Source: a virus (Duplodnaviria > Heunggongvirae > Uroviricota > Caudoviricetes). Taken from it: a DNA stretch of 13,445 nt. How positions within the stretch are numbered: the first letter of the stretch is position 1; each line of letters opens with the position of its first letter. The position numbers were made by a program, and so were the translations under genes. Below, piece by piece: positions 1,676 through 8,140 of this stretch. Below the pieces are notes generated by a model that ran no database searches, was not told the origin of the DNA, and saw only the letters and a list, made by a program, of their open reading frames with translations. The stretch lies in the IMG/VR virus record IMGVR_UViG_2654587686_000016. One strand, 5' to 3'.

Positions 1676-1831
1676 TTACTCCTCAGGTTCGTAAGCTGTG
1701 AAGACAGCGACCTCCGTCTGGCCGGTTCGGATTCGTACCTCGCAGAGGTCTTTCCTCGTTACCAGTGCCGTCACTATGACGGTTAAACAGATGACGATCA
1801 GGGCGATTAACATCGCCTTTTGCTGCTTCAT
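1676..1831 (-). CDS. hok: Hok-family type I toxin (51 aa, HokD/RelF-like)
   Basis: Translation MKQQKAMLIALIVICLTVIVTALVTRKDLCEVRIRTGQTEVAVFTAYEPEE matches the Hok/RelF sequence as I remember it: a single TM helix and conserved Cys. SD AAGGAG lies 8 nt upstream of the ATG. The 70-aa ORF in the track is an in-frame over-extension. Confidence 0.85.
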   Translation of the reverse strand: MKQQKAMLIALIVICLTVIVTALVTRKDLCEVRIRTGQTEVAVFTAYEPEE

Positions 1832-2010: not shown

Positions 2011-2388
2011 CTAACTATCCAATAGATCAATGCCAACCTCTTTTCCTGCAACATCTCTCATCAGAAGTGACCCAAATTCATCCAATCAGCACAAAAGAAA
2101 CATTTAAAGCGTGAATGCTACCGAACGTTCATTTCAATTACATCGTTTTGATTTTTAACAGTTTTCACCTCAACAAATCAAATGGCATTAGCATTCATCA
2201 TGGAAGAAAGACTGATAAAAATGATCATTTTCAATGACTTATGATCACATCGGGTATTGCCAAGTCATTCCTTTTACGCCAGGATACCCACAAGTGAGTA
2301 GTCGAGGAGAGTTTGCCAATTTTTGCGATATAAATTTCAATGTCCGAAGAACCATTAATTGTTAATTGATTCTGTATAAGGTATTAAC

Positions 2389-3486
2389 ATGACAATTTCA
2401 TATATTCCTATTCTGAAAGCGAAACGTTCTGAGTTATCAGCTTTATCGCAGCTATCCATTGAAAAGAAATCAAAAATTTTGCCATTACTCGAAATTGAAC
2501 CAGTGCCAATTGACCCTGATTCAGGTATTGCCTTAAAGAGTTATAACGAGACTCTTATAGAGTTCGGAAAGAAAGTCTCAAAATCTTGCTCAGATATGCA
2601 AGGTGTTTATATTGATGGATTATTAATTGAAGAGCATTTTATTTCTCCTGAAGATCATTACCCTATAATAAATGCGGTTAATCAAGTTAGAGATATGGAG
2701 ATAAGAGTTATTCCTGTCAGTTCACCAACTCGCCCATCTAACTATAAAAGAGCGATTGATGAATTAATGCAGAATGAAATATGCTTGAGATTAACCACGT
2801 TAGATCTGGTTAACCCACAATTAATAACGCATTACATTAATCATCTGGGAATTCCTTTATCAAATATTGATATAATTATTGACTTAAGAGATGAGTTAAC
2901 CGAGGATAAAATTAATTCCGGCGAACTATATACTTTGGCAATGGGATTGATAAACAATCTGGCGCACCTCAATGAATACAGAAAAGTGATTCTTTCTGGG
3001 GGTTCATTTCCTACAGATCTCAGTGATATTTCTGTTGGTCTATATTCTCAACCTCGAATCGAGTGGATTTTATGGCAGAGTTTAATGAATAGAAAAGAAC
3101 TTGCCAGAAATGTGATTTATAGTGATTATGGAGTACAGCACCCCGACTTTAATAGGCTTTCGACGCGATTCCCTAGCGTATCTGCCAGCGTCAGATACTC
3201 TGGAGATAATGACTTTTGGGTATTTCGAGGAAGAGTAGCTAATCGCTTTGGTTATGAACAATATGGTAAACATAGTGAGGATATTCTTGCTCATCGAGAA
3301 TATTCAGGGCCTACATTCTGTGCGGGAGATAGAGACATAGAATATTATGCAAACGAGTATCAAGCCTACAAAGCCAATCCCTCTGGTAACTATAAATTTG
3401 GTAGCCCAGAGGTATGGCGTAGGATTGGGCAAAACCATCACATAACTAAGGTTGTTGAGCAACTCGCCACTCTTTACGGGCTTTAA
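2389..3486 (+). CDS. Uncharacterised 365-aa protein, gene A of an AT-rich accessory cassette
   Basis: Long uninterrupted ORF at about 33-35% GC (counted on two 60-nt samples), with a weak SD (AAGG) 9 nt upstream. Hydrophilic, with no TM segment and no catalytic motif I can name. Preceded by a ~500-bp AT-rich ORF-free region. Confidence 0.8.
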   Translation: MTISYIPILKAKRSELSALSQLSIEKKSKILPLLEIEPVPIDPDSGIALKSYNETLIEFGKKVSKSCSDMQGVYIDGLLIEEHFISPEDHYPIINAVNQVRDMEIRVIPVSSPTRPSNYKRAIDELMQNEICLRLTTLDLVNPQLITHYINHLGIPLSNIDIIIDLRDELTEDKINSGELYTLAMGLINNLAHLNEYRKVILSGGSFPTDLSDISVGLYSQPRIEWILWQSLMNRKELARNVIYSDYGVQHPDFNRLSTRFPSVSASVRYSGDNDFWVFRGRVANRFGYEQYGKHSEDILAHREYSGPTFCAGDRDIEYYANEYQAYKANPSGNYKFGSPEVWRRIGQNHHITKVVEQLATLYGL

Positions 3487-4024
3487 GTTTAACTCGAACA
3501 GCTTCACGAAGCTCGCCAACATCCATACTATTGGCGAGTTTTGACCATAAGACGCGTTTAGGTTTATTTTTCAAATTCTGTAGCTCCCCTACATCACTTA
3601 ATAGGGAAAGCAATTCATCTTTCCAAAGAAGCATTGTTAAGGAAAGTTTGTCCACTTGTGGATTCAACTTGCTAGTTCGAATTGTTTTTAAATGGATACC
3701 TTGCCGTGCACCTTGCGTAACTTGCTTTATCCCCCACCATGATGGAACTATGCTTAAAGCATCATAAAGATGGCAATCAGAGACAACCAAAGTTACTTTA
3801 TCCATCACTGATGAGTAATGTTGCACCTGCGCTGGTAATCTGAGCAAGTTATCACTCTTGCTCTTCAACTCATAACCATGTATAAGCCCATTGATCACTG
3901 CTATATCAGCTCTGCTAGCCCCTAGATTCATCGTAAACTCATCAATGATTAGGGTGTCAGGATCTTTATGATGATCTCTCAGAATCTTGGCATGCACAGC
4001 CTTTCTTACATCAATGTCTCTCAT
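3446..4024 (-). CDS. Uncharacterised 192-aa protein with a PD-(D/E)xK-like nuclease signature, gene B of the AT-rich cassette
   Basis: ORF convergent with gene A, overlapping it by 41 nt at the 3' ends. Motif E29 ... RA-D40-IAVI ... GY-E52-L-K54 fits the D-x(n)-(D/E)xK pattern of a hydrophobic beta-strand followed by ExK. GC roughly 37-40% on two 60-nt samples. Confidence 0.75.
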   Translation of the reverse strand: MRDIDVRKAVHAKILRDHHKDPDTLIIDEFTMNLGASRADIAVINGLIHGYELKSKSDNLLRLPAQVQHYSSVMDKVTLVVSDCHLYDALSIVPSWWGIKQVTQGARQGIHLKTIRTSKLNPQVDKLSLTMLLWKDELLSLLSDVGELQNLKNKPKRVLWSKLANSMDVGELREAVRVKLKARKEWRVAQQP

Positions 4025-4329
4025 ACCATAGTTGCGCTTTCATCGACTCTCTCAAGCCATGATTCTATATCATGGTTCGCATGAATGCCATTTGATATGA
4101 CCAGTGGTTAAACATTGCACAGAAAAGTGGATGTGTATTTTAACAAAAGCAATGACGGCTAACCATGTTGGTATGTCGATAAAATGTTTCAACGTAAGCA
4201 TTATCTGTTCCGCCCTTTCAGACGGCCTCCTGATGTTCTGAGGGTGCAGAATCCCTCCGGTTAAGGGTTTAATAAAAATCGTTTCTGATTTAAATCTTCA
4301 GTATTTAGTTGTTAGTCGGTTTATAGCCT

Positions 4330-5347: not shown

Positions 5348-6325
5348 TTACCCCCTGAAGCCCGGCGGAATTTCAGTGTCCGGTTCAGAAATGTGATTCA
5401 CGCAACGCTGCGCAGGCGAACGCCCCAGGCGGATAACCAGTTCATCCCATTTTTCCCGGAGTTTTGCCGGACTCATGATGTTTTTTACCCAGAACGAATC
5501 CCGCTGGAGACGCCCAAACATTTCACAAATTTGTCTGTGAGTTCTGCCATCCAGCATCCGCATTGTGCGAACGTCATTGGCCCATGCTGTCCAGTTGGGT
5601 TCTTTCGGTCTAGTGATCTCGCCATCATCGCTGGCCGCCTGCTCGTAAAGACTCACGATTCGTCCCCAGATCCACTGTGCGCACACCAAATCTTCCTGAC
5701 TTCCCCACTGGCGTTTTTTCGCACTGAACACAACCGCGTCAGGGTGTCGGGTTAAAAAATCCTGTTCAGCCGTCTGCGGGTCCGGTTGCGAAGCGTCCGG
5801 ACAAGAAGATCTTTTATCTGACGGATCAGGTTTTAATACTGACGGATCGGGGTCAATCATCGCCCCCCTAATCGGCAGTTTTTTATCAACAGTTGATCCA
5901 TCAAAATTTGACGGGTCAACCGTTGAGGGGTCAATATTTGACGGGTCAACTGTTAACGGGTCATTTTTTGCCGGGCTAATTTTTCTTTTTGGTTTATATG
6001 ACTCACGCGCCGCCGCCGCAGCTGCTTCGAGTTTTTCCACATTAAGCCGATAGATATTGCTTACATTACGCCCACCGACCTTACGCTCTTCCTTCGTCAG
6101 CCAGCCCTCTTTCGCCAGTTCTGCAATAGCCGATTTCACTGTGGATTCACTTCTTGCACCGATCTGACGCCGGATAGTTTCAATGGCAGGCCATGACACG
6201 CCCTCGTCATTGCTGTAGTCTGCAAGACGGGCCATAACCGCCACCCTGGATAAGATCATGCCGGTGAAGGCGCACCCTTCCCAGACAAGACCATGAAGCT
6301 TGCTGCTCATAAAACCCCCGAACAC
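5348..6325 (-). CDS. Replication initiator-like protein (lambda O analogue): N-terminal winged-HTH, central 5-aa repeats encoded by the iterons
   Basis: Occupies the position after the cro-like and ydaT-like genes. N-terminus is HTH-like (SRVAVMARLADYSNDEG...TVKSAIAELAKEGWL). The internal repeat DPSNIDPSTVDPSNFDGSTVD corresponds to 15-bp tandem DNA repeats. The ORF starts at a GTG; an ATG at 6310 with a GGGGG SD 5 nt upstream is the more likely start. Confidence 0.75.
   Translation of the reverse strand: MFGGFMSSKLHGLVWEGCAFTGMILSRVAVMARLADYSNDEGVSWPAIETIRRQIGARSESTVKSAIAELAKEGWLTKEERKVGGRNVSNIYRLNVEKLEAAAAAARESYKPKRKISPAKNDPLTVDPSNIDPSTVDPSNFDGSTVDKKLPIRGAMIDPDPSVLKPDPSDKRSSCPDASQPDPQTAEQDFLTRHPDAVVFSAKKRQWGSQEDLVCAQWIWGRIVSLYEQAASDDGEITRPKEPNWTAWANDVRTMRMLDGRTHRQICEMFGRLQRDSFWVKNIMSPAKLREKWDELVIRLGRSPAQRCVNHISEPDTEIPPGFRG
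5820..5965. repeat. Iteron array (candidate phage replication origin) inside the replication initiator gene
   Basis: Four 15-bp tandem repeats start at 5910, 5925, 5940 and 5955 (GACGGGTCAAC / GAGGGGTCAAT / GACGGGTCAAC / AACGGGTCATT), with two degenerate copies at 5820 and 5841. An AT-rich tract follows at 5961-6000 (TCATTTTTTGCCGGGCTAATTTTTCTTTTTGGTTTATATG). Confidence 0.6.
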
Positions 6326-6332
6326 CGTGCTT

Positions 6333-6758
6333 TTAGTGCATCACCACAGCATTCCCTGCCGGGCCGCCGCGATTCATCTGGTCATACAAAACAACCGCTG
6401 ACGCAACAAAATCATCGACATCCTTCACCAGCCGATCCCTCCGTTCGACGATCTCACGGTAATATTCAGAACTGTGGCTGCGCATACGGGCCACCAGCAA
6501 AGGCGGCATCGCCTTTTCGATCGCCGGTAACAGAGCCTGCATTTTTTCAACAGCATCAGGGGTGTCTTTATCCAGCCAACGGAAAATTTTCTGGGTATTA
6601 CGGGCCAGGGCTTCCGGATGGCTGTCGTCGTACAGTTCAGGGAACGTCATCCCCAGTTCGAAATAAGTCCGGGCTATTTCAGCTGCAGGAACTTTCTCAC
6701 CATCAGGGTATGCCCAGGCATTCATCGCCATGCGGATGTGCTCATGTTTGATTTTCAT
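6333..6758 (-). CDS. ydaT: YdaT-like protein (141 aa)
   Basis: Second gene of the operon divergent from the repressor, overlapping the upstream cro-like gene by 17 nt. Length matches K-12 Rac YdaT (about 140 aa, from memory), with SD GAGG upstream. Confidence 0.7.
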   Translation of the reverse strand: MKIKHEHIRMAMNAWAYPDGEKVPAAEIARTYFELGMTFPELYDDSHPEALARNTQKIFRWLDKDTPDAVEKMQALLPAIEKAMPPLLVARMRSHSSEYYREIVERRDRLVKDVDDFVASAVVLYDQMNRGGPAGNAVVMH

Positions 6759-7065
6759 GAATCATTTGCCTCTTGATGCTTCGGGTATGATCGTTTTCGT
6801 CATTTGGTTGCTTCATCGACATATTCTGCGAATAACATGACGAGCGTCGTAAGTATGTCCAATCAACATCAGGACGAAGTTCTTCACACAGGACACCACC
6901 TTTTGTTGCTCGTTCAATCGCAGGACATCTCTCAGCAGGTAACTGACGTACACCTTTGATCCATTGATTTACGCTTGGAGGAGATACACCTAAAAGCCTA
7001 GCCATTGCTGATTGCCCACCGACAACAGCACAAGCTCGTTTGAATGAATAGTTATCTTTTTTCAT
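6742..7065 (-). CDS. ydaS: Cro/CI-type HTH DNA-binding protein, YdaS-like (first gene of the rightward-equivalent early operon)
   Basis: MKKDNYSFKRACAVVGGQSAMARLLGVSPPSVNQWIKGVRQLPAERCPAIERA closely resembles Rac YdaS as I remember it. The ATG at 7065 has GGAG 9 nt upstream; the upstream in-frame ATG in the ORF track lies within the RBS. Divergent from the repressor gene. Confidence 0.75.
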   Translation of the reverse strand: MKKDNYSFKRACAVVGGQSAMARLLGVSPPSVNQWIKGVRQLPAERCPAIERATKGGVLCEELRPDVDWTYLRRSSCYSQNMSMKQPNDENDHTRSIKRQMIHENQT

Positions 7066-7089
7066 CGAATGAACTCCAAAAAACACGCA

Positions 7090-7140
7090 ACAATATTAGG
7101 CATAGCCTAATGAAATTGTCAATAGGCTATGCCTAATACA
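7090..7140. promoter_or_regulatory. OR-like control region: two 17-bp palindromic operators overlapping a sigma70-like promoter for the ydaS-like operon
   Basis: Operator ATTAGGCATAGCCTAAT at 7094-7110 is a perfect palindrome (arms ATTAGGC / GCCTAAT); a second copy (reverse complement ATTAGGCATAGCCTATT) is at 7120-7136. On the - strand, TTGACA (7121-7116), an 18-nt spacer and TAATAT (7097-7092) form a promoter pointing at the ydaS-like gene. Confidence 0.65.
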
Positions 7141-7189
7141 TCGAGAGTAGGGATTGCCTAACGCGATGCGCATAGGAGACTATTAAGCA

Positions 7190-7666
7190 ATGCTTAGTGG
7201 TAAAGACTTAGGCCGAGCGATAGAGCAGGCCATTAACAAAAAAATTGCATCAGGAGCCGTCAAATCAAAGGCGGAAATCGCACGTCATTTCAAAGTCCAA
7301 CCACCATCAATCCATGACTGGATTAAGAAAGGTTCGATAAGTAAAGACAAACTTCCAGAACTATGGCGTTTCTTTTCTGATGTGGTTGGTCCAGAGCATT
7401 GGGGGCTTAACGAATACCCCATACCAACCCCATCCGCTTCAGATACAAAAAGTGAACTTTTAGACATAAACAGCCTTTATCAAGCCGCCTCTGATGAAAA
7501 AAGAGCAATTGTGGCTTTCATCTTATCTGGAAATGCTACGGAGCCTAGTTGGGTTGATCATGACGTTCGCGCCTACATTGCCGCAATGGAAATGAAGGTA
7601 GCTAACTATCTGAAAAATCAAGAATCAAAACGGAAAAGCCAGAACATCACCAAGACAGGAACTTAA
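7190..7666 (+). CDS. racR: RacR-like prophage repressor (158 aa)
   Basis: 158-aa ORF, the same length as K-12 RacR from memory, divergent from the cro-like gene and flanked on both sides by the same operator sequence. N-terminal HTH-like segment; AGGAG 12 nt upstream of the ATG. Confidence 0.8.
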   Translation: MLSGKDLGRAIEQAINKKIASGAVKSKAEIARHFKVQPPSIHDWIKKGSISKDKLPELWRFFSDVVGPEHWGLNEYPIPTPSASDTKSELLDINSLYQAASDEKRAIVAFILSGNATEPSWVDHDVRAYIAAMEMKVANYLKNQESKRKSQNITKTGT

Positions 7667-7680
7667 ACTTATATGGTCCG

Positions 7681-7702
7681 ACGGGAAATTCCTAGTTCCC
7701 GT
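7681..7702 (+). terminator. Candidate weak terminator/hairpin downstream of the repressor gene
   Basis: Stem ACGGGAA / TTCCCGT (7 bp) with an 8-nt loop, 15 nt after the racR-like stop, followed by a weak T-rich stretch (TAGTTAAC). Confidence 0.3.
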
Positions 7703-7759
7703 TAGTTAACTCCTACTACCTCTTCCACAAACCATCACCTATTAGGTTGCGCCCAAATT

Positions 7760-7803
7760 ATTAGGCATAGCCTATTGACAAGTAATTAGGCATTTCCTAT
7801 AGT
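7760..7803 (+). promoter_or_regulatory. OL/PL-like promoter with overlapping operator, driving the ydaF-like through exonuclease, xis and int genes
   Basis: Operator copy ATTAGGCATAGCCTATT at 7760-7776. TTGACA at 7775-7780, an exactly 17-nt spacer containing an operator half-site (ATTAGGCAT), then TATAGT at 7798-7803. Mirrors the OR promoter. Confidence 0.6.
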
Positions 7804-7984
7804 TTTCCCATACCAACCCATCCCGTCCCACACAATACAGGGCAATACCTCGAGTTACCAGGCAGTGGTCAGGGGTTAAGTAGCCAGCCCGAGGCGTAAG
7901 AACATGACGGCAGGGTTCAACTTTAATAACTATGCAGCAGGTTTTTGTTCCGCTACCCCGGCGTTAAGGGGAAATGAGGTCAGC

Positions 7985-8140
7985 ATGGATACTATCGATC
8001 TTGGCAACAGCGAATCTCTGGTATGTGGCGTGTTCCCCAACCAGGACGGTACGTTCACCGCAATGACGTATACCAAAAGCAAAACGTTTAAAACCGAATC
8101 TGGAGCGCGTCGCTGGCTGGAAAGAAATTCAGGTGGGTGA
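7985..8140 (+). CDS. Small early protein (51 aa), YdaF-like
   Basis: Internal ATG of the 78-aa ORF with GAGG 7 nt upstream (MDTIDLGNSESLVCGVFPNQDGTFTAMTYTKSKTFKTESGARRWLERNSGG). Size and position, first gene after the PL-like promoter, match the small Rac gene next to racR. Confidence 0.5.
   Translation: MDTIDLGNSESLVCGVFPNQDGTFTAMTYTKSKTFKTESGARRWLERNSGG

Follow-up and report, generated by a model that had tools for sequence, protein, structure and literature searches.

A minimal two-gene variant of the Gop-beta-cII/PD-lambda-2 defense family with a deeply conserved convergent gene overlap in an Escherichia coli prophage

The gop-beta-cII system of satellite phage P4 (Gop_beta_cll in PADLOC and DefenseFinder) protects against lambda and P1 and shows abortive-infection, toxin-antitoxin-like behavior (PMC9122126), and it is triggered by phage orf184 (bioRxiv 10.1101/2023.04.06.535777). 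The beta and cII genes of P4 are convergent and are separated by a 27-nt gap that holds an intrinsic terminator, visible at the junction as a perfect hairpin with T6 after it on the cII strand; statements on P4 transcription made here are based on the GenBank annotation and the citations in PMC9122126. A second described system, PD-lambda-2 (Vassallo et al. 2022), consists of three genes, encoding a HigB-like protein, a HigA-peptidase, and a 'P4 antitoxin-like' component C that is required for defense, and its published account does not mention a cII-like fourth gene (PMC9519451). Conserved convergent pairs in which two real coding genes share their 3' ends, as reported here, have also been described (Rogozin 2002; Palleja 2008). 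Convergent overlaps make up approximately 7% of gene overlaps, and long ones are mostly artifacts or are conserved only among close species (PMC2478687).

The window, i.e., the whole 13,445-nt stretch analyzed here (IMG/VR record IMGVR_UViG_2654587686_000016), corresponds to a Rac-like lambdoid prophage of Shiga-toxigenic E. coli (STEC). Two convergent genes, A and B, are the only genes of a low-GC island of approximately 2.2 kb (Table 1), which lies between the replication genes and hok/DUF968/rusA. The island occupies a variable cargo slot, and its flanks (1830-2013 and 4176-4273) are common to phage PhiR42_1, which has different cargo between them. The whole island was found in 93 of 5426 complete E. 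coli genomes, and more than 90 complete E. coli genomes match the locus sequence at 99.9% identity. According to the annotation of E. coli O111 11128, B is oriented like the phage early-right operon, and A lies antisense to that operon.

Gene A is homologous to P4 beta, and gene B is homologous to P4 cII. Residues 5 to 356 of A match the Pfam family Beta_protein (PF14350; 7e-52), and no NCBIfam model was found for A and its homologues. Among the PADLOC models, A is a clear homologue of PD-Lambda-2_C (1.4e-40 and 7.8e-38), whereas it scores only 1.5e-4 against the P4-type beta. Residues 1 to 184 of B match the NCBIfam family sce7726 (NF033832; 1.7e-56), and B also matches the PADLOC model 'cll', which stands for P4 cII (2.4e-28), and P4 cII itself by tblastn (1e-5). 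Two components of Gop-beta-cII are present, namely, a beta-family protein and a cII protein (PADLOC cll/PF26915 Phage_P4_cII/NF033832). The AlphaFold2 (AF2)-predicted structures of A and B are both confident, and the invariant residues of B include D40, E52, and K54. The window module would be counted among the anti-phage modules, the activity being experimentally known only for the P4 Gop-beta-cII system (PMC9122126).

Table 1. Coordinates of the features of the beta/cII locus in the window
Feature	Position	Strand	Basis
Low-GC (35-41%) cargo island carrying A and B only	2014..4175	both	composition, flanks, annotation, genome counts
Weak promoter-like site of A, TTGCCA-17-TTCAAT	2313..2341	+	read from sequence; fails strict scan
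Gene A, beta-family protein (P4 beta/PD-Lambda-2_C type), 365 aa	2389..3486	+	profiles; predicted TIM barrel
Convergent A/B overlap, 41 nt	3446..3486	both	sequence, ORF list, family statistics
Gene B, sce7726/Phage_P4_cII family protein, 192 aa	3446..4024	-	profiles; predicted PD-(D/E)xK nuclease fold
Core doubly constrained stretch	3461..3484	both	stacked two-frame translations; per-column information
Hairpin CTCGCCAA-N11-TTGGCGAG then TTTT	3512..3542	+	fold; relaxed terminator scan, dG -10.1; strict scan misses
Promoter-like site of B, ATGGCA-18-TAGAAT	4062..4091	-	promoter scan; upstream alignment

The window module differs from both described systems in gene content. P4 carries gop, whereas the window does not: no gop was found upstream of beta, there is no ORF of ≥60 aa in 1900-2389, and the small island ORFs have no PADLOC match. 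By comparison, P4 gop scores 5e-70 against its own PADLOC model. Similarly, the island has no ORF corresponding to component A (HigB-like) or component B (HigA-HTH fused to a peptidase) of PD-lambda-2, and true PD-lambda-2 loci, by comparison, score 1e-40 and 2e-150 for these components. A third gene was sought in the island, and none was found. The window module is a gop-less and HigBA-less two-gene form. In addition, P4 cII has 264 aa and no WR tail, unlike the shorter B of the window.

Several toxin-antitoxin-like modules occur within 6 kb of the A/B island. A Hok/Gef-family toxin gene (1676-1831, minus strand) adjoins the island; the promoter-like site upstream of it, TTGGCA-17-TAGAAT (10/12; 2036->2008, minus strand), is strong. 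O111 11128 carries an IS1203 insertion between hok and gene A that is absent from the window. A YdaT-family toxin homologue and a RelB/RelE-ParE pair are located near the immunity region, at approximately 6300-8020 of the window (L001 annotation).

The first-pass annotation had claimed that A and B overlap by 41 bp at their 3' ends, which agrees with the sequence, the ORF list, and the RefSeq annotation. The A stop is TAA at 3484-3486, and the B stop is TAG at 3448-3446 on the minus strand (cta on the plus strand). RefSeq gives two identical CDS with the identical 41-nt overlap in E. coli O111:H- 11128, i.e., WP_000156210.1, 'beta family protein', and WP_001204666.1, 'sce7726 family protein'. 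Since the overlap is set by the two stop codons only, the choice of start codons cannot abolish it, and a start or stop reassignment that removes the overlap is ruled out. Codon position 1 lies opposite position 1, and positions 2 and 3 lie opposite each other, a phase that is reported to be the commonest one in longer natural convergent overlaps (bioRxiv 10.1101/2025.11.07.687268). The A stop is built from the invariant L180(CTT)-K181(AAA) of B, and the B stop is built from T353(ACT)-K354(AAG) of A. The family profiles extend to within 8 to 9 residues of the stops of both A and B, and both ORFs are real genes reaching their annotated stops.

It had also been noted that full-length transcripts of the two genes would be antisense to each other. 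This holds, because each mRNA must include its own stop codon; the A and B mRNAs are complementary over at least 41 nt, and convergent polymerases must meet. The case in which both mRNAs terminate before the overlap is impossible, since a functional mRNA cannot stop short of its own stop codon. By the same logic, the complementarity rises to approximately 100 nt if the A transcript ends at the hairpin downstream of the A stop.

The conservation of this arrangement was analyzed in three independently collected samples. Sample 1 was an alignment of B homologues, with one genome per species, together with P4, a Gordonia phage, a Myxococcus phage, the O111 11128 reference locus, and the window, and it covered Pseudomonadota, Myxococcota, Desulfobacterota, Acidobacteriota, Bacillota, Actinomycetota, Chloroflexota, Patescibacteria, Melainabacteria, Gemmatimonadota, and Armatimonadota. 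Its 85 loci contained 81 pairs, all 81 convergent and 78 overlapping by 11 to 167 nt; of the four loci lacking beta, two were cut off by a contig end. Sample 2 was retrieved via A homologues on viral contigs, and its 59 loci contained 54 pairs, all of which were convergent and overlapping (20 to 86 nt), with the five exceptions being truncated A copies or contig ends. Sample 3, retrieved via PD-lambda-2_B homologues, comprised three loci with three convergent pairs, overlapping by 155, 155, and 158 nt. In total, all 135 pairs of samples 1 and 2 were convergent, and 132 of them overlapped by 11 to 167 nt. The overlap length was 2 mod 3 in every overlapping pair of the three samples, which corresponds to a single relative frame. 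An overlap in 132 of 135 homologous pairs, in one frame, is far beyond chance, and the overlap is real, ancestral, and doubly coding.

The overlap is long and variable in the family, with a median of approximately 50 nt, a maximum of 167 nt, and a 15-fold variation. Only three pairs had no overlap, those of P4, Xenorhabdus vietnamensis (39-nt gap), and Photobacterium galatheae (14-nt gap), and the convergent orientation was kept in all three. In locus L015, both C-terminal motifs are present on separate DNA, which indicates that the overlap can be resolved. The architecture had been called unusual for a co-functioning pair. This is so for gene pairs in general, but not here, where the overlap is the rule of the family. 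Its family-wide occurrence indicates that the overlap was inherited and is not a local regulatory invention. The A/B overlap also differs from the reported long convergent overlaps in that it spans more than 10 phyla and contains conserved motifs of both proteins, and no mention of it was found in the literature examined.

Homologous pairs were also found in other mobile contexts. An E. coli prophage (L144, 3134-4763) carries a two-gene beta/cII module with a 59-nt overlap between Rz and Nu1, its B being 53% identical to that of the window, and an E. coli integrase island (L147, 4001-5639) carries one with a 41-nt overlap, its A being 66% identical to that of the window. The beta/cII cassette travels as a unit, as these two loci lie in other cargo slots of E. 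coli mobile elements. Gordonia phage Powerball has the same pair in gp32/gp33 (L003, 2872-4684), annotated as 'exonuclease' and 'hypothetical', respectively, with an 89-nt overlap, beside a HicAB toxin-antitoxin pair and near the integrase. Rare cII/sce7726 homologues without an adjacent beta occur in Myxococcus phage Mx4 (p30; L004, 2992-3561), where p30 lies within a co-directional gene block, and in L013; these are possibly solo or repurposed copies.

The conserved C-terminal motifs of the two proteins, ...QL(A/S)xL in A and ...LKxRxxWR in B, meet inside the overlap. The invariant B residues K181, R183, and W186 and the nearly invariant A residue L359 all fall within it. In the AF2 models, the terminal helix of A (residues 340 to 363) enters the overlap, with the overlapped residues 353 to 363 being confidently helical, and W186 of B is positioned directly past its last helix (residues 169 to 182). 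When the loci were stacked without gaps on the invariant Trp codon of B, the C-terminal helix of A, ...N-H-H-(I/L)-T-x-V-V-x-Q-L-(A/S)-x-L-x-G, and the B motif L-K-x-R-x-x-W-R were found to share the same DNA. In the window, Q358-L359-A360-x-L362-x-G364 of A faces K181-x-R183-x-x-W186-R187 of B on the opposite strand. The shared motif stretch is approximately 24 nt, and its register is fixed across the family. The W-R codons of B (TGG CGA or TGG AGA) are the reverse complement of L-A (cTC GCC a) or L-S (cTC TCC a) of A, with TGG CGA lying antisense to cTC GCC a in the window, so that a synonymous change of the B Arg codon between CGA and AGA produces the alternation of Ala and Ser in A.

The information content of the alignment columns shows the same double constraint. 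Third codon positions carry 0.14 bit where the sequence codes for B alone and 0.09 bit where it codes for A alone, whereas all three positions carry approximately 0.65 to 0.75 bit within approximately 21 nt on either side of the Trp codon, the anchoring codon being excluded. It is precisely at the W-R codons that A takes over from B as the source of the dominant constraint, and the wobble positions of each gene are held by its partner. These patterns point to purifying selection in both frames inside the overlap, and protein-coding constraint on both strands fully explains the conservation of the overlap. Since the register is fixed, an overlap of at least approximately 20 nt is unavoidable, and the remaining length depends on the position of the first stop in each tail. 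In three near-identical E. coli prophages (L101, L102, and L106), a G-to-A change at the equivalent of window position 3454 is both Q191stop in B and V356I in A; B is two residues shorter and the overlap is 35 nt, i.e., one mutation is scored in two genes.

Convergent units whose RNAs pair at their 3' ends are known from type I toxin-antitoxin systems, such as txpA/RatA and bsrG/SR4, and from lambda oop/cII. Such 3'-overlap antisense pairs usually include one non-coding RNA, and their duplexes are known to trigger decay by RNase III. The RNAs of the convergent E. coli units arfA and mscL also pair at their 3' ends (PMC10070815). Unlike in the type I toxin-antitoxin and oop-like pairs, both A and B encode conserved proteins. 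If the A/B pair is regulatory, it would act by such pairing of 3' ends.

Neither strict nor relaxed scans detected an intrinsic terminator in or at the overlap, nor did they find a bidirectional terminator (a GC-rich hairpin with flanking T/A tracts) at the junction; since the stops overlap, there is no spacer and no room for an intergenic terminator. With RNAalifold, 58 unique gapless sequences yielded no consensus structure for either strand, and the window overlap folds unremarkably (z-scores of -1.8 and -1.2). A conserved RNA structure or a non-coding antisense partner was not found at the junction, where both partners are protein coding. A conserved RNA element or terminator in the overlap was rejected based on the negative RNAalifold and strict-scan results and on the presence of relaxed-scan hairpins in only a minority of loci.

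The hairpin downstream of the A stop begins 26 nt past it, lies within the coding sequence of B, and is local, not conserved in the family; it is possibly a weak intrinsic terminator for the A transcript. Terminator-like hairpins within 150 nt after the A stop occurred in 18 of 66 loci, compared with 6 of 66 controls (p = 0.012), which suggests that read-through into B matters to the cell. After the B stop, the difference from the controls (5/66 versus 1/66) was not significant. The heptamer CTCGCCA of the dual-coded core (3463-3469) recurs as the 5' arm of the hairpin (3512-3518), and its complement forms the 3' arm (3532-3538); the 3' arm may pair with either copy of CTCGCCA, which may also be a coincidence.

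The promoter-like site of B contains an extended -10 element, TGaTATAGA, at 4072-4064, and the upstream alignment showed that enterobacterial relatives with different genomic surroundings have kept TGnTATA upstream of B. The same analysis found no conserved promoter upstream of A in the relatives. For transcription of both strands across the junction, the promoter-like sites of the two genes and the lack of a terminator between them are indirect evidence. The ATG of A at 2389 is preceded by an AAGG ribosome-binding site. A 10-codon mini-ORF, ATGAAAGCGCAACTATGGTATGAGAGACATTGA, at 4024-4044 (minus strand) starts 18 nt upstream of the B ATG in another frame and overlaps the B start; it could encode a leader peptide or be due to chance.

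The distribution of upstream partners relates the window module to both known systems. HigBA-peptidase genes were found upstream of beta in at least 16 loci and in all three loci retrieved via PD-lambda-2_B, with the convergent cII/sce7726 gene still present, and an upstream partner was missing from at least 32 of 81 loci, among them every close relative of the window. Beta and cII are the invariant core, and gop and HigBA-peptidase are variable upstream additions. Loci of the PD-lambda-2 type from genomes and metagenomes have the same convergent, overlapping cII/sce7726 gene beside C; the overlaps in this subgroup (155 to 167 nt) are longer than that of the window. In L022 (3416-6140), L148 (3501-6272), L149 (3199-6354), and L150 (3501-6328), cII/sce7726 overlaps C by 155 to 158 nt, so that each of these PD-lambda-2-type loci comprises four genes. 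The published ECOR42 clone (QOYB01000002, 228989-232396), in which C ends at 229385, extends 396 nt beyond C, which would truncate any such cII/sce7726 gene. The HigA-peptidase component of PD-lambda-2-type loci is highly abundant (4540 matches at E ≤ 1e-20) and unusually well conserved, with 60 to 90% identity in soil and other metagenomes.

Other explanations of the overlap were compared with the one favored here. Since many annotated convergent overlaps of more than 60 bp are 3'-extension artifacts (Palleja 2008, PMC2478687), one ORF might have been extended by a frameshift or a lost stop, with no true overlap. This is refuted by the near identity of the locus in complete E. coli genomes, the coverage of both C-termini by the family profiles, the conserved residues of A and B inside the overlap, and the recurrence of the overlap in 132 independent loci, and an artifact is exceedingly improbable. 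Another explanation is that the overlap is a selected antisense or transcriptional-interference switch, in which convergent promoters and a 3' RNA duplex set the B:A ratio in a toxin-antitoxin-like manner and phage infection or prophage induction tips the balance. Because B is oriented with the early-right operon and A against it, induction under this explanation would raise B and depress A. A switch is consistent with the convergence of every pair, including the three that lost the overlap, with a junction that has neither a terminator nor room for one, with the conserved extended -10 promoter-like element that B has of its own, and with the hairpin enrichment after the A stop, which implies a biological effect of read-through. 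The relatives are toxin-antitoxin-like abortive-infection systems (PMC9122126, PMC9519451, bioRxiv 10.1101/2023.04.06.535777), and precedents exist in the type I toxin-antitoxin 3' overlaps, lambda oop/cII, and arfA/mscL (PMC10070815). However, P4 functions with a gap and a terminator (PMC9122126), the two protein frames account for all of the overlap conservation with no conserved RNA structure, and the 15-fold length variation fits a tuned duplex poorly. Such a switch is a tenable but rather unlikely explanation.

A more far-reaching proposal is that the overlap is a selected control device in which the coding mRNAs act as mutual antisense regulators, as in a coding type I toxin-antitoxin system, and cII/sce7726 is set free only once transcription of beta (or of the HigBA-beta operon) breaks down in phage-infected cells. 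It would follow that PD-lambda-2-type systems have a fourth component missed so far, cII/sce7726, which is possibly the effector. This proposal is speculative, and we consider it doubtful. The overlap might also act as a linkage or safety device, whereby damage to the junction hits both genes and a lone nuclease or a lone regulator is prevented in a mobile cassette. The pair is indeed obligate: A was present beside B in all but two of the 83 informative loci (81), and every intact A had its B. It occurs in many mobile settings that are unrelated to each other (the nin region, the Rz-Nu1 slot, integrase islands, and actinophages), and the conserved motifs of both proteins sit in shared nucleotides. 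However, only the last few residues are shared, and the rest of each gene can be lost independently, as truncated A copies exist (L116 and L118); in addition, the upstream partners gop and HigBA vary freely. A linkage device is hard to distinguish from a frozen accident and appears improbable.

The favored explanation, to which we assign a probability of roughly 0.6, is that the overlap is a frozen ancestral dual-coding junction, kept mainly by protein-level constraint and compaction and not by essential antisense control. An obligate two-gene module would pair beta, a predicted TIM-barrel protein, with cII/sce7726, a protein with a predicted PD-(D/E)xK nuclease fold. This module would form the invariant core of anti-phage systems of the Gop-beta-cII and PD-lambda-2 types, of which the window would hold the minimal two-gene form as prophage cargo. 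Purifying selection on both proteins has frozen the register across phyla; uncoupling the C-termini would need a duplication, and compaction and tight linkage would be by-products. Separate convergent promoters would give 3'-complementary mRNAs and converging polymerases, so that some antagonistic coupling of expression is probably built in, and separating or truncating either gene at the junction would probably damage both. Since P4, with its gap and terminator, still defends (PMC9122126), the overlap itself is not required for function. The overlap can be lost, as in P4 and L015, with defense kept at least in P4. Some features speak against this explanation. Convergence kept without overlap in three pairs could reflect selection on convergent transcription itself, and the overlaps are often far above the minimum of approximately 20 nt, which is not required by a pure frozen-core model. 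The hairpin enrichment after the A stop likewise suggests that read-through into B has an effect.

The two-gene form is a minimal variant of a known defense family with an unusually deeply conserved convergent overlap, and it is common in prophages of pathogenic E. coli. The separately named P4 Gop-beta-cII and PD-lambda-2 systems both rest on one invariant beta/cII core, and PD-lambda-2-type loci appear to hold an unrecognized fourth gene. The architecture forces antisense coupling of the A and B mRNAs, and the overlap may, as the first-pass annotation had proposed, mediate mutual regulation of the two genes. Real convergent overlaps that are long and conserved beyond close species are rare (PMC2478687), and the A/B pair is a clean, deeply conserved case, whose co-encoded conserved termini are useful for studying dual-coding constraint and provide a natural template for engineered overlapping genes.
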